Assembly (NCBI GenBank): GCA_964016885.1
Contig: OZ024742.1
Coordinates: 152,954,001 to 153,018,000, forward strand
Reading direction: 5' to 3'
From: Eledone cirrhosa
Taxonomy: Eukaryota
DNA: 64,000 nucleotides
This document shows positions 4,683 to 61,221 of the stretch, piece by piece. The notes beneath the pieces are model-generated. The model searched no databases, was not told the origin of the DNA, and saw nothing but the letters and a program-made list of their open reading frames with translations. Within the stretch, counting starts at the first letter, position 1. Each line of letters starts with the position of its first letter. A program made the translations under genes and the position numbers.

Positions 4683-5049
4683 ATGAATGATTTAAACTGA
4701 ACTTTGATTCATGTAATTTCTATATAACTGCTCTGTAAAACAACTGATGTTATTACATTGAGCTATTTATCTTACTGGTAATAAGATAGTTTTGAATTAC
4801 TGTCTTTCACTATTTATGGTTTAAAATATATATAACTATATAAGGTTTTATTATATACATAACCATAAATAGTATCCTTAATACTATATATATATATATA
4901 TATATATATATATATATATGGAAAGTTATATTTAAAATTGTTGGGTTACAACTAGTAAATATTTATAACTGATATAAAAGCACTCGACTAATATTTGGAG
5001 TATATTTACAATATTAAATAAATGGAAACTATATTTATAAAACCTTATT

Positions 5050-5115
5050 TGTTTCATTATATATATTTCAGGGATATCATATTAACAATATGCTATGCCT
5101 TCCTCAGACAAAATA
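5050..5115 (-). ncRNA. Hammerhead ribozyme, family A
   Basis: Near reverse complement of 5233-5298. Confidence 0.75.
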
Positions 5116-5232
5116 CAATATAAACAGTTTTATAGATAAATAGATTCGACATGCCAAATCAACCTCTTCAAATGCAAGTCGATGTTTGTTACGGTATGTA
5201 GAATCTATTTATCTATAAAACTGTTTATATTG

Positions 5233-5298
5233 TATTTTGTCTGAGGAAGGCATAGCACATTGTTAATATGATATCCCTGAAATATATATAATGAAATA
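5233..5298 (+). ncRNA. Type I hammerhead ribozyme, family A
   Basis: tattttgt CTGAGGA agg...cct GAAA tatata TA atgaaata; stem III is an (AT)4 palindrome. Confidence 0.8.
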
Positions 5299-5340
5299 AA
5301 TATGGTTTTATAAATATAGTCTCCATTTATTTAATATTGT

Positions 5341-7296
5341 ATATATATATATATATATATATTATATATATATATATTATATATATATATTATATATATA
5401 TATTATATATATATATATATATATATATATATATATATATTATATATATATATATTATATATATATTATATATATATATATTATATATATATATATATAT
5501 ATATATTATATATATATTATATATATATATATATTATATATATATATATTATATATTATATATATATTATATATATATATATATAATATATATATATATA
5601 TATATTACATATATATTATATATATATATATTATATATATATAATATATATATATTATATATATATTATATATATATTATATATTATATATATATATATA
5701 TATATATTATATATATATTATATATATATTATATATATTATATATATATATATATATTATATATATATTATATATATTATATATATATATATATATTATA
5801 TTTATATATATATATATATATATATTATATATATATATTATATTTATATATATATATTATATTTATAGATTATATATATATATATATATATTATATATAT
5901 ATATATATTATATTTATATATATATATTATATTTATATATATATATTATTTATATATATGTATATATTATATATATATATATATATTATATATATATATA
6001 TTATATATATATTATGTAAATATATATTATATTTATATATATATATATATATATATTATATTTATATATATATATATATATATTATATATATATATATAT
6101 ATATTATATATATATATTATATATATATATTATATATTATATATATATATATATTATATATATATATATATATTATATTATATATATATATATATTATAT
6201 ATATATATATTATATATATATATATTATATATATATAATATATTATATATATATATATTATATATATATATATATATATATATATTATATATATATTATA
6301 TATATATATATTATATATATATATATTATATATTATATATATATTATATATATATATATATAATATATATATATATATATATATTATATATATATTATAT
6401 AAATATATATTATATATATATAATATATATATATTATATATATATTATATATATATATATATTATATATATATATATATATATATATTATATATATATAT
6501 ATATATATATATATTATATATATATTATATATATATTATATATATTATATATATATATATATTATATTTATATATATATATATATATATATATATATATT
6601 ATATATATATATTATATTTATATATATATATTATATTTATAGATTATATATATATATATATATATTATATATATATATATATTATATTTATATATATATA
6701 TTATATTTATATATATATATTATTTATATATATATATATATTATATATATATATATATATATATTATATATATATATATTATATATATATTATGTAAATA
6801 TATATTATATTTATATATATATATATATATATTATATTTATTTATATATATATATATATATATTATATATATATATATATTATATATATATATTATATAT
6901 ATATATTATATATTATATATATATATATTATATATATATATATATTATATATTATATATATATATATATTATATATATATATATTATATATATATTTATT
7001 ATATATATATAATATATTATATATATATATATTATATATATATATATATATTATATATTATATATATATATATATTATATATATATATATTATATATATA
7101 TATATTATATATATATAATATATTATATATATATATATTATATATATATATATATATTATATATTATATATATATATATATATTATATATATATATTGTT
7201 TATATATATATATTATATATATATATATATATATATTATATATATATATATTATATATATATATATATATATATAATATATATAAATATATACATA
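5341..7296. repeat. Interrupted (TA)n microsatellite with higher-order internal duplication
   Basis: TA repeats with TT slips; variant landmarks (ATTTATAGATT, TGTAAAT) recur about 775 bp apart. Confidence 0.95.
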
Positions 7297-57100: not shown

Positions 57101-57630
57101 AAGCACTTTAATACATGAATACACTTACATCTAACTATACACATCAAACATATATATATATTTACTTATTTATATACATTTTCACATATATATACATACT
57201 TATGGTCGCTTTTAGACACATTCATTATCGCATTTTTGCACCTATTCTCATCAGCATATCTTTCCATTATTAGTGTGGTAATTTGAGGTTATTAATATAC
57301 ATATATATGTTGAGAAGAGATTGTTTTTATATTTTTCTAACTAGATTGAGGTTTATATAGTTGGGAGGATGTCCCTCTTTTATGTAATATTCGGCTTGTA
57401 GTGGGAAAAAAGGGTTTTAGTTCGGTGATGGCAGAATAATGTTCGTTCAATTCTGTTATTCAGCAATTTCTTCTTGTGTGTGATTATGTAATAAATCTAG
57501 AGATTTTGGCTCCTGGAAAAGCTTTGGGTTTTAGCTAATTTCTCCCATTTTAGGGTAAACTTCTGATCGCTATCCCTGAGCGTCCAAGCTTTTTCTGCTA
57601 AAGTTGTTACATTTCTTTGGCTCTGGTGTT
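57101..57630 (-). mobile_element. PLE 3' stub (Naiad-type GIY-YIG C-terminus)
   Basis: Minus strand reads [24 protein letters not shown]...*IYYIITHKKKLLNNRIERTLFCHHR; absent from the ORF track. Confidence 0.75.
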
Positions 57631-57935
57631 ATATAAATAAATATATATATATATATATATATATATATAAATATATATATATATATATATATATATATAT
57701 ATGTATATATGTATATATATATATATATATATATATATATATATATATATATATATATATATATATATATGTATATATATATGTATATATATGTATAAAT
57801 ATATGTATATATATGTATAGGTATATATATGTATATATATGTATATATGTATTTGTATATATATATGTATATATATATATATATGTATATATATATATAT
57901 ATATATATATATATATATAGTTTTTAATATAGATG

Positions 57936-57986
57936 AGATTCTACAGGACTAGAACTGTTTCATTCTTTAGAAATCATCAGGAATCT
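57936..57986 (-). ncRNA. Hammerhead ribozyme, family D
   Basis: Exact reverse complement of 63379-63429. Confidence 0.85.
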
Positions 57987-59012
57987 GGGTATCAAAAAAC
58001 AAGTATGGTACTTATAGGTCTCTACAAAGGAGGACACAAGGGCTGCGACCTTTGTATTTCAGAGAGCTACGAAATTTTATTCGCCAAGGGCCCGCTACTG
58101 AACAAACTCTCTGAACACTGCCCGAAATGCATGCACAAGAACTTTGCAACTTTCAAACACTTTAAGCAAGTGTTAAAGCCCGATGGCTAAAAACGACCTC
58201 CTCCTATTGGCCCCTATACCTCCTTCCGACCCTACACCCACCCCTCCTCAACCTGAAATACGGCCACTATGGTTATGTGAGTACCTCTTACCTATCTACA
58301 TTTTCTGCCTGTAGAGGTGTTTTTATGTGCCTGCGTATATGCGTATATTTATTGAGTACTTATTTATTTCTATGTGTATATATTTGTGTGTATGTGTGTA
58401 TATGTATGTGTATGTATATATATATGTGTGTATATGTGTTTATTTATGTATATATATATATATATATGTATGTGTGTGTATGTATGTGTATGTGTGTATA
58501 TATATGTATATATGTGTGTATATGTGTATATGTATGTATATTTATGTATGTATATGTGTGTGTGTGTATGTATGTGTATATATTTATATATATATATATA
58601 TATATATGTATATATGTATATATATGTACATATGTATATATATATATATATGTACATATGTATATATATATATATGTATGTATGTGTGTGTATATATATA
58701 TAAATATGTATGTGTGTGTGTGTGTGTGTGTGTATATATGTGTGTGTGTGCATGTGTGTGTATATATATATATATATATATATATATGTATATATATATA
58801 TATATATATATATATGTGTTTGTGAGTGTGAATATATATGTATATATGTATGTATGTATATGTGTATGTATGTGTGTATGTATGTGTGTATGTATATATG
58901 TGTATATATATGTATGTCTGTATATATATATATGTATATATATATATATATATATATGTGTATATATATATATATATATATATATATATATATATATATA
59001 TACATATATATA

Positions 59013-61221
59013 TACGATATTAAATAAATGGAAACTATATTTATAAAACCATATTTATTTCATTATATATATTTCAGGGATATCATATTAAAAATATGGT
59101 ATGCCTTCATTAGATAAAATACAATATAAACAGTGTTATAAATAGATAGAATTGACATACCTTACACTTCAACTTCCATTTAAAAAGTTGATTTGGTAGT
59201 GAAAAATGTTAGGGACAGTTATAGAGAATTTAAACTTCGCTATAATAACCACAATAATTCTTTCACAGATCCAAGCAAAAGATCTTCAACATCACTCTCA
59301 GGCTTACTCTGGCAACTTAAGCATGATAACGTTGGATATTCGACGGCTTGGAATATAGTCTCAAGAGGGATTCCTTTTAATTCATCTTCTGAGACATGTG
59401 ACCTCTGCGTGGAGGAGATATTCTTTATACTAAAATCTAAAAATTCCCTTAATTTACGGACAAATTTATTCAGTTGCTGCAGACATAGATTGAACTCAAC
59501 TTTTAAATATAAATATAAATTTAAAATGTTTTATTTTTTATTAAGATTTGTAATTATTTATGAAACTCGCCGATAAATCTTTCGATTTCTTTTTTTTAAA
59601 CATTCTTCATGAATAATTAAACTACCCTAAAAGATGATGCTCCAAATATATCGAATCAATTTTACACTAGATAAACTTCTATAATAAATATAAGACCATC
59701 TGTAGATCAAATGGGTATCCTAAACTTTTGGAATGATTTCTGCTAGACAGGATTTGGTGAATAATTTTGGTTTTGTTTGCTTTTGATTCTGATGCTTCTA
59801 ATGAACTTGGCAATATATTGTCAAATAAATTTGAAGGGTAGATTTCTGTGGTTGATATGCGGGGCATACTGTGTTTTATTACGGCCCGAGATACTCTAGG
59901 AATTTTCTTGGCGTTTTAATTATATTTTTTAATATTTTTTAATATTTTTTAATATTTTTTAATATTTTTTAATATTTTTTAATATTTTTTAATATTTTTA
60001 ATATTTTTAATATTTTATTGATATATTGATATCTGTTGTCTATTCTATGCTTGAACGATAATCATGTAGAGTAAAGGCAAGAATATTATTGTTAAAATTA
60101 ATGTAGATTCTATATATGTTTGTGTGTATGTACACATATATGTATACTAGAATTTTTACAGCACAATGAGAATGTTTTCATGTGAAATAAGAATTTGCAG
60201 AGTTGATCACGTAAATTCACATGGATGTCTATAGTGTCGAATCTGGGAAAACCTTCTATTTTCTTTTCTTTTTTCATGAAAGTGCATATATACTTATGTA
60301 TTTCAATTTTTTTTTTTTTTTTTTTTTTTTTTTTTAAGTTTTATCTCAGTTCTGATTATAAACCTAAGAATTTTAAACTAGACATATGATCATTATTTTT
60401 CACACATTATTGATACGTGTCTCATTCATGAATACTGATATTTATATTATAATACCTAATTCATACGAATTGATATTTTAGATTGATGAAACATAATGTT
60501 TTAAATCTGCCTCGTTTATCTCTGGATATTTTTCTTTTCTCTCTATGTAACGGCTGTTTTCTCTCCTAACCACATATATCTCTCTCTACCTTAATACTAT
60601 AACTAAATAAATAAATAAATAAATATATCATTGATACGTCATTCAACTGGTGCCCAACTACCTATTTTTCTCTCTCTCTATCTCTATCTATATCTATCTC
60701 TCTCTATTTTTTTCTCTCTCTCTCTTTTCTCTCTCTCTCTCTCTCTCTATCTATCTCCCTCTGTTTTTTCTCTCTCTATCTATCTCTCTCTGTTTTTTCT
60801 TTACATGAATTTCTTCTCTCTATCTATCTATCTCTCTATATCTAGCTCTCTCTGTTTTTCGTTACATGCATTTCTTCTTTTTCTTCGTTTTCTTTCTTTC
60901 TTTTTTTTTTTTTTCTTTTTTCTCTATAACTGTCCCTAACATTTTTCACTACCAAATCAACTTTTTAAATGGAAGTTGAAGTGTAAGGTATGTCAAATCT
61001 ATCTATTTATAAGACTGTTTACATTGTATATTGTCTGATGAAGGCATACCATATTTTTAATATGATATCCCTGAAATATATATAATGAAATAAATATGGT
61101 TTTATAAATATAGTTTCCATTTATTTAATATCGTAAATATACTACAAATACTTGTTGAGTACTTTTATATCAGTTATAAATATTTACTCGTTGTAACCCA
61201 ACAATTTAAATAAAACTTTGC
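59013..61221 (+). mobile_element. 5'-truncated Naiad-type PLE, family A: inverted repeat 59013-59227, GIY-YIG stub ~59225-59530, direct repeat 60921-61135, tail to 61221
   Basis: FKLRYNNHNNSF..TSLSGLLWQLK..W.I..CDLCVEEIFFI..LNLRTNLFSCCRHR. Confidence 0.88.
61027..61092 (+). ncRNA. Hammerhead ribozyme, family A (mirror copy 59056-59121 has a mutated CTAATGA core)
   Basis: ttgt CTGATGA agg...cct GAAA tatata TA atgaa. Confidence 0.8.

Follow-up and report, generated by a model that had tools for sequence, protein, structure and literature searches.

The 64-kb window analyzed here (positions 152,954,001-153,018,000 of contig OZ024742.1, in the 3.0-Gb genome of Eledone cirrhosa) is 72% AT and contains many (TA)n tracts housing short repeats that are often palindromic. 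Four of the repeat families, C, A, E and G, are to judge by their sequence the 3′ ends of Penelope-like elements (PLEs), and their copies end at one of two points: a tail-less 3′ end point, X, or an end point 57-88 nt further on, Y, the stretch between the two being the tail. Neighboring copies in head-to-head orientation nearly always combine one X with one Y, and we think it likely that the two ends of a (TA)n target, once cut, prime reverse transcription at these two preset sites on the element RNA, one at each.

One X and one Y per insertion

End points and pairs were scored on contig C1 in a sample of 160 merged segments (570 kb), drawn from 97 of the first 100 listed family C matches, the 30 listed first for G, E and A, and extra pair-spanning stretches; the sample is biased to match, covering most of the first 100 listed C matches and a pair-enriched subset for G, E and A. 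Divergent neighbors, defined as head-to-head copies less than 6 kb apart, numbered 122, and 116 of them paired X with Y (p ~1e-27 against 50%): 42 of 46 in family C, 29 of 31 in G, 21 of 21 in E and 24 of 24 in A. Two of the six exceptions were tandem read-throughs whose outer ends were X and Y, three further ones (one of these uncertain) were separated by TA tracts and other DNA, and the last had X at both ends with identical flanks. We found no clean single insertion with Y at both ends among the 122 neighbors. (TA)n was present at both ends of 109 of the 116 pairs, and of 81 of the 87 pairs from families C, A and E.

Fixed, bimodal 3′ ends

The preliminary description of this DNA had proposed that the outer ends of inverted arms are fixed rather than scattered, and genomic copies in the C1 sample did pile up at X or Y. 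Family C ended 60 times at X and 52 times at Y, with no ends between; the corresponding counts were 39 and 40 for G (one further end at X-10, none between), 44 and 28 for E (one between) and 46 and 29 for A (two between). Both points show small jitter to adjacent TA steps. Exact 22- to 25-nt words taken just upstream of X were counted genome-wide, with the reversed words as controls; we obtained 10,875 occurrences for C, 28,284 for G, 35,562 for E and 29,633 for A, and none for the reversed words. Among public contigs of run X1, which may be the assembly's own sample, loose (AT)n ends of family C fell exactly at X in 18 cases and at Y in 22, and runs X4 and X5 gave Y ends only, among the matches listed. 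Local segmental duplication of a single insertion was rejected as an explanation, since window copies have different DNA on the far side of their TA tracts and the family words occur genome-wide in the tens of thousands. An assembly artefact is also unlikely, given the diverged arms, the one-sided tail and the public contigs with the same ends.

All 13 inverted-arm ends listed in the preliminary description exist and abut (TA)n. Those of family C lie at 9849-9852, 26138-26141 and 33932, those of E at 7298, 9273 and 57080, and those of A at 5341 and 59013. The ends of G and the related set G2 were located at 10515, 14638, 21214 and 48298, but the one placed at 10470 was about 10 nt early, the actual end being 10482. 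Two of the 13, at 9850 and 10482, are not inverted arms of palindromes but lone X arms without a tailed partner, and 10482 and 10515 belong to two family G insertions facing each other across one TA tract. The X-ended arm may bear the open reading frame (ORF), so "inverted arm" is not synonymous with the shorter arm.

Identity of the families

On sequence grounds, families C, A and E are the 3′ ends of Hydra-type PLEs and family G of Neptune-type PLEs (Neptune and Nematis being left together here); the assignment to PLEs, with their ORF of reverse transcriptase (RT) and GIY-YIG endonuclease, is made from motifs. The family C element is a 3,910-nt unit with an intact 810-aa ORF in three family C loci. 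Its protein contains RWT, DKT, YRDD, a CxCX5C linker (CNCRIKNKC), CNLC..EK and CLH (CxxC/CxH), and many of 21 relatives carry RWK/E, DKT/S, CxCX5C and CxxC..EK. The marks given for the Hydra clade are RWK, DKT, the CxCX5C linker and CxxC plus CxH around the endonuclease E and N, with no CCHH (PMC8557442, available text). The family C motif set matches this definition, the protein being read by its motifs and the clade assigned from them rather than from an RT tree. By Pfam, the family C protein has no recognizable domain, and of 22 aligned relatives only 1 gave GIY-YIG; a single-sequence fold of the protein (predicted local distance difference test, pLDDT, 32) was not usable. The A and E arms match the family C protein, encoding relatives at 36-56% identity. 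The family G ORF is frameshifted, with YVDD and a GIY-YIG-like C-terminus; its linker (CIDKKCITC), two Cys within the GIY-YIG core and two His downstream correspond to CX2-5CxxC plus CCHH. The family C protein also has an Asn/Ser/Pro-rich low-complexity linker between RT and endonuclease (L101:3090-3300), which recalls the Asn-rich inserts reported for rotifer PLEs (PMC3846280, available text).

A partial tandem (pseudo-LTRs) with an adjacent inverted copy was present at loci L101, L102 and L094 of family C and L283 of family G. Along L101, the likely RNA start (1001) is followed by the predicted hammerhead cut (1126), then X (1172), Y (1260) and the first ATG (1312), so both X and Y are internal to the family C tandem transcript. 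The preliminary description had taken the first priming site to be the 3′ tail of the RNA. This did not hold: Y is internal as well, 254 family C copies read through it into the 5′ untranslated region (5′ UTR) and ORF, and Y ends jitter 0-3 nt into the read-through sequence within single haplotypes. In L094 (C1:54092200-54101950), a family C insertion, each arm is longer than one 3.9-kb unit, so that RNA of more than unit length, from tandem read-through or as a circle, is used at both priming sites. At C2:216011851-216012378, read-through words of family C occur four times, two on either strand and ~200 nt apart, a possible mini-unit tandem in both arms.

Possible selectors of X

TA/AT microhomology at the ends, which had been noted earlier, is real, but the match is only 0-7 nt and variable, and the site is not chosen by it. 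At X the match to the TA flank was 3 nt in 33 of 42 family C pairs, 4 nt in 10 of 11 G pairs and 4 nt in 5 of 10 E pairs, and ranged from 0 to 5 nt among family A subfamilies. A perfect (AT)4 decoy inside the family E tail is followed by a TA repeat in 28 copies, compared to 11,422 at one X variant; on inspection of 20 decoy copies, 12 were real ends and 8 continued into tail sequence. We therefore rejected microhomology as the selector of X, the match being short and variable and the better decoy nearly unused. The observations suggest that primer pairing of a few TA/AT bases fine-tunes the start without selecting it.

A hammerhead core was found by pattern upstream of X in families C, A and G, and in E only with a variant core; cleavage is predicted from these sequences. 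In the family C copy with the annotated motif the cut, placed from the hammerhead consensus, presumably follows 33889, and the usual X lies 46 nt downstream of it. At this distance we rejected X as the hammerhead cut in family C, and only 1 of 42 family C copies has its center (not its end) near the cut; the end of a processed shorter RNA, offered as an alternative in the preliminary description, is thus not this cut and is an improbable reading of X. In an Rfam scan, the 150 listed of 471 rows were all sub-threshold microRNA matches to TA tracts or hairpins, with no hammerhead among the matches listed. Across 26 family A tails, complementary ACTC/GAGT and TTG/CAA are conserved, at most a possible RNA structure; these tails showed little or no compensatory change, and the folding scores of 6 tails, set against simple shuffles, were weak (z 0 to -1.9).

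Arm lengths, centers and haplotypes

Arm lengths were scored in 112 pairs (4 of the 116 were excluded as poorly mapped), using as references 10 long arms of scored pairs oriented by ORF direction or unit map. The X arm was longer by >300 nt in 22 pairs and the Y arm in 19, and the excess surpassed 1 kb in 9 and 10 pairs, respectively. Arms overlapped in all 116 scored pairs, which had been found via a word common to both arms, so that overlapping arms were preselected; 8 non-overlapping cases were found separately. These 8 are among 19 tail-only Y arms. In each, the Y arm starts 7-33 nt downstream of X and holds none of the sequence of the X arm attached to it, which it therefore could not have templated. 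The remaining tail-only arms begin 11-26 nt upstream of X (5), have no adjacent arm (4) or are ambiguous (2).

In family C, centers pile up in a TCA context at a point 172 nt upstream of X; genome-wide, 842 centers have a 0- to 8-nt spacer and 716 overlap on CATATG. Both arms reach the 172-nt point in 13 of the 42 sampled family C pairs, and at least one arm does so in 21; the pile is likely the capped RNA start. When 44 of 50 family C centers were oriented, an unambiguous untemplated C followed the X complementary DNA (cDNA) in 9, the Y cDNA in 11 and both in 6, where a base templated by the genome would be G. Full-length copies of the long interspersed element (LINE) L1 carry the same cap-derived base signature (PMC11702581, available text), and by this analogy the untemplated C suggests that both arms are run-offs on the RNA. 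In L234, L236, L243, L258, L263 and the window copy at 9687, center spacers repeat the arm's last bases, as if RT had re-primed on the RNA 5′ end after run-off.

Both arms of one insertion stem from the same source haplotype. Mismatch at diagnostic sites within versus between insertions was 0.7% vs. 48% in family C (28 pairs), 1.2% vs. 44% in A (23 pairs, including copies with 3-kb spacers) and 8% vs. 43% in G (20 pairs). At non-diagnostic sites, family C arms differed by 1.6% and copies by 1.9%; because the arms differ there about as copies do, wholesale gene conversion is not the cause of the shared haplotype. The shared haplotype and the pairing rule together are most simply read as two uses of one RNA. 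PLE RTs are not known to have RNase H, so the RNA template would survive.

Proposed mechanism and alternatives

Priming by both ends of a cut (TA)n site had been suggested in the preliminary description, and this part of it fits all tests run: X-Y pairing in 116 of 122 neighbors, TA at both ends in 109 of 116 pairs, free arm lengths, the 8 non-overlapping arms and the untemplated C. In our model, a (TA)n tract would be cut on both strands by the element endonuclease, and each of the 3′ ends so released would prime a separate reverse transcription. The tail RNA between and around X and Y would act as a protein-bound start element whose two borders are the two start sites, as for an anole PLE in vitro. 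Both arms would be first-strand cDNAs running toward the RNA 5′ end and stopping independently, often halting at the capped start, where the untemplated C would be added. End-joining or a short stretch of annealing would link the two cDNA 3′ ends head to head, and fill-in would then yield an inverted repeat that has the tail at only one of its sides. Most likely, one RNA would serve both active sites of a protein dimer, with the Y-primed strand displacing the X-primed strand, because a symmetric target engaged by two equivalent RNAs would not be held to one X and one Y. We see even chances that such programmed twin priming is the normal PLE route, a dimer threading one RNA through both RT sites and copying it twice. 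If so, the repeats lying head to head, the tail at one side only and the very many short palindromes, as run-offs that reached the capped start, would all come from a single mechanism in both the Hydra and the Neptune clade.

An alternative is that one Y-primed cDNA folds back onto itself, or that an antisense template self-primes, which is a published reading (PMC3846280, available text), with the second strand halting at X because of a second nick or a bound protein. Such fold-back would account for same-haplotype arms, perfect palindromes, the 716 CATATG centers and correlated arm lengths. It requires, however, that the Y arm contain the whole X arm, and the X arm was longer by >300 nt in 22 of 112 pairs and 8 Y arms were entirely without X-arm sequence; 0- to 1-base spacers and an untemplated C on the inner end of the X arm would also be hard to obtain from a hairpin primer. 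We regard fold-back as improbable.

We give equally little credence to twin priming with two different RNAs on an asymmetric complex that takes one of each, a long one on which priming occurs at Y and a processed one that ends at X. Two species would yield fixed X ends and free arm lengths with no need for strand displacement, but X lies 46 nt downstream of the family C hammerhead cut, so that no known processing site marks it, and for the anole PLE in vitro, unprocessed RNA supports starts at both sites (PMC11167929, available text). The one-X-one-Y rule and the shared haplotype would, moreover, demand an extra sorting step. Very improbable, finally, is that X is set after reverse transcription, with both ends primed at Y or X cut in the cDNA and the tail lost during resolution or by later TA-mediated deletion: X sits at a TA-like site that the enzyme could cut, and the tail has been explained by resolution of the intermediate through the endonuclease (PMC8557442, available text), but later deletion predicts young copies with Y at both ends, of which there was no clean single insertion in 122, and use of better TA runs, while the (AT)4 decoy is nearly idle, and in the anole PLE the in vitro start sites coincide with genomic ends (PMC11167929, available text).

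Several points weigh against priming at X and Y by the two target ends. Lone X and lone Y arms occur, and (TA)n on both flanks hides target-site duplications. Arm lengths correlate (Spearman 0.64 in C, 0.78 in E, 0.42 in A), partly via the shared start site, but the correlation is seen also in some long copies. Asymmetric deletion at the palindrome center after insertion could shorten either arm and make some of the tail-only arms, and the 716 centers on self-complementary CATATG fit fold-back equally well. The set of centers was chosen by pattern, 18 of the 44 oriented ones have a single, ambiguous C/G spacer, and the untemplated C could reflect RT preference instead of a copied cap. Same-haplotype arms fit one RNA and two RNAs of one locus alike, and the family G arms are discordant at 8%. 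In these families the mechanism is read from genome sequence.

Insertions and other features of the window

The insertions are listed in Table 1. Families B, H and J have a one-sided extension, as in C, A, E and G, and the family B tail contains an ACTCC..GAGTGC motif that is also found in the A and C tails. The left arm of the family H tandem ends at the tail end, and its right arm passes two tails and ends tail-less; the tandem thus follows the one-X-one-Y rule and is a candidate non-autonomous, retrozyme-like PLE derivative. Within the 2-kb Y arm of the last family A insertion, positions 59229-59516 are the 3′ end of a Hydra-type ORF, whose product shares 41% identity with that of family C.

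Table 1. PLE-related insertions and motifs in the 64-kb window (positions are those of the window)
Feature	Positions	Strand	Ends and remarks
Family A, Hydra-type head-to-head insertion	4918..5341		Y end left, X end at 5341
Family E insertion	7298..7898		~500-nt X arm on minus strand, X end 7298
Family E Y arm of 7298..7898	7807-7898		Near tail-only, begins ~5 nt before X; arms nearly non-overlapping
Further family B palindrome	8300..8849		X end left; tail ~100 nt to Y at right
Family E insertion	9048..9273		Y left, X right
Family C lone X arm	9687..9852	+	From likely RNA start to X; without tailed partner
Family G lone X arm	10393..10482	+	
Family G, Neptune-type insertion	10515..11086		Long X arm left, short Y arm right
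Family G insertion	14279..14638		Y left, X right
Family G lone Y arm	20780..21180	-	5′-truncated, directly joined to (AT)n
Family G2 insertion	21214..21630		X left, Y right
Further family H tandem	22296..23577		Units ~525 nt, without long ORF
Family C palindrome	25710..26141		Center at likely RNA start; Y left, X right
Family C perfect 408-nt palindrome plus tail	33424..33932		Y left, X right
Minimal type I hammerhead motif in family C arm	33829..33895	+	CTGATGA..GAAA, palindromic stem III
Further family J perfect 384-nt palindrome	42064..42607		One-sided extension ~135 nt
Family G2 insertion	47730..48298		Y left, X right
Family E insertion	56676..57080		Y left, X right
Family A insertion	59013..61225		~210-nt X arm left, 2-kb Y arm

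Two more inverted-repeat families lie at 3135-4884 and 53063-53384, the first with a one-sided extension of ~165 nt, beyond any tail measured here. Two more 5′-truncated PLEs are present at 49695-51270 and 37880-40600 (minus strand); Pfam recognizes RVT_1 and GIY-YIG in one, and the other is Hydra-like, with 37-39% identity to the family C protein. TA tracts by insertions reach 2-4 kb (5340-7297, 9270-9690, 33932-37880 and other long tracts) and hold variant units, TTA in some and TATG or TGTA in others, that are sometimes like the junction bases; within one tract, 35201-35236 is repeated at 37245-37280. These features suggest that the TA tracts expanded after insertion. Three LINE copies, 95-98% alike and with APE endonuclease and RT domains, are each located between TA tracts (28998-32732, 42951-46610 and 18623-20689), and other LINE-like 3′ ends, 93% alike, at 41774-41972 and 51291-51489 close in GAGTAAAA repeats by TA tracts.

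Comparison with known systems

The anatomy described here is known already, and we regard the result as a mechanistic advance for retroelement specialists and not as a new kind of element. As in the Hydra-clade PLEs of the available text of PMC8557442, there is an ORF with RT and, at its C-terminus, a GIY-YIG domain, partial-tandem pseudo-LTRs, an inverted 5′-truncated copy, a tail at one end only, a hammerhead motif and (TA)n targets. The tails of 57-88 nt compare with 30-40 bp reported there for PLEs, and the 3.9-kb family C unit with Hydra elements that are generally <3 kb. The PLE accounts consulted here treat the tail as optional or often one-sided, with no pairing rule or arm-length data, and PMC8557442 counts among open questions how PLEs come by their tandem and inverted repeats and a tail on one side. 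One-sided tails and two start sites of reverse transcription are thus already published for PLEs; what we add is the one-X-one-Y rule and its reading as twin priming. We found neither a twin-priming proposal nor a pairing rule for PLEs in the literature searched, and the available text of PMC2377424, PMC13282606 and 10.64898/2026.07.22.740005 contains nothing on either; earlier discussion in older papers is possible.

The preliminary description had likened these insertions to L1 twin priming, only stereotyped. The likeness would extend to both target ends priming reverse transcription, to head-to-head cDNAs joined by end-joining and to an untemplated cap base on run-offs (PMC11702581, available text). 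The stereotypy holds in that the second site is fixed here, whereas in L1 it is variable and set by microhomology. The comparison fails for the arms, which here usually duplicate the same sequence as a main outcome, with no poly(A), whereas L1 twin-primed cDNAs barely overlap and are a minority outcome (same source).

The closest biochemical parallel is the Poseidon PLE of anole, for which both strands are cut and extended in vitro, reverse transcription starts at two internal sites bounding the tail, and a dimer is predicted (PMC11167929, available text). A hammerhead lies upstream of both start sites in that element as in ours, and is not needed in the anole PLE. The anole element primes without homology, whereas a TA match of 0-7 nt is usual here, and its start sites lie within the ORF, compared to the 5′ UTR in family C. 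The available text of that study does not tie the two sites to two target ends or to inverted copies. The one-X-one-Y rule, the free arm lengths and the cap-like C on both arms would tie the two in vitro start sites to the two cut ends. Read as twin priming, the pattern would explain the tens of thousands of short palindromes in the TA tracts of this genome, and it gives a prediction that can be tested in the existing assay.

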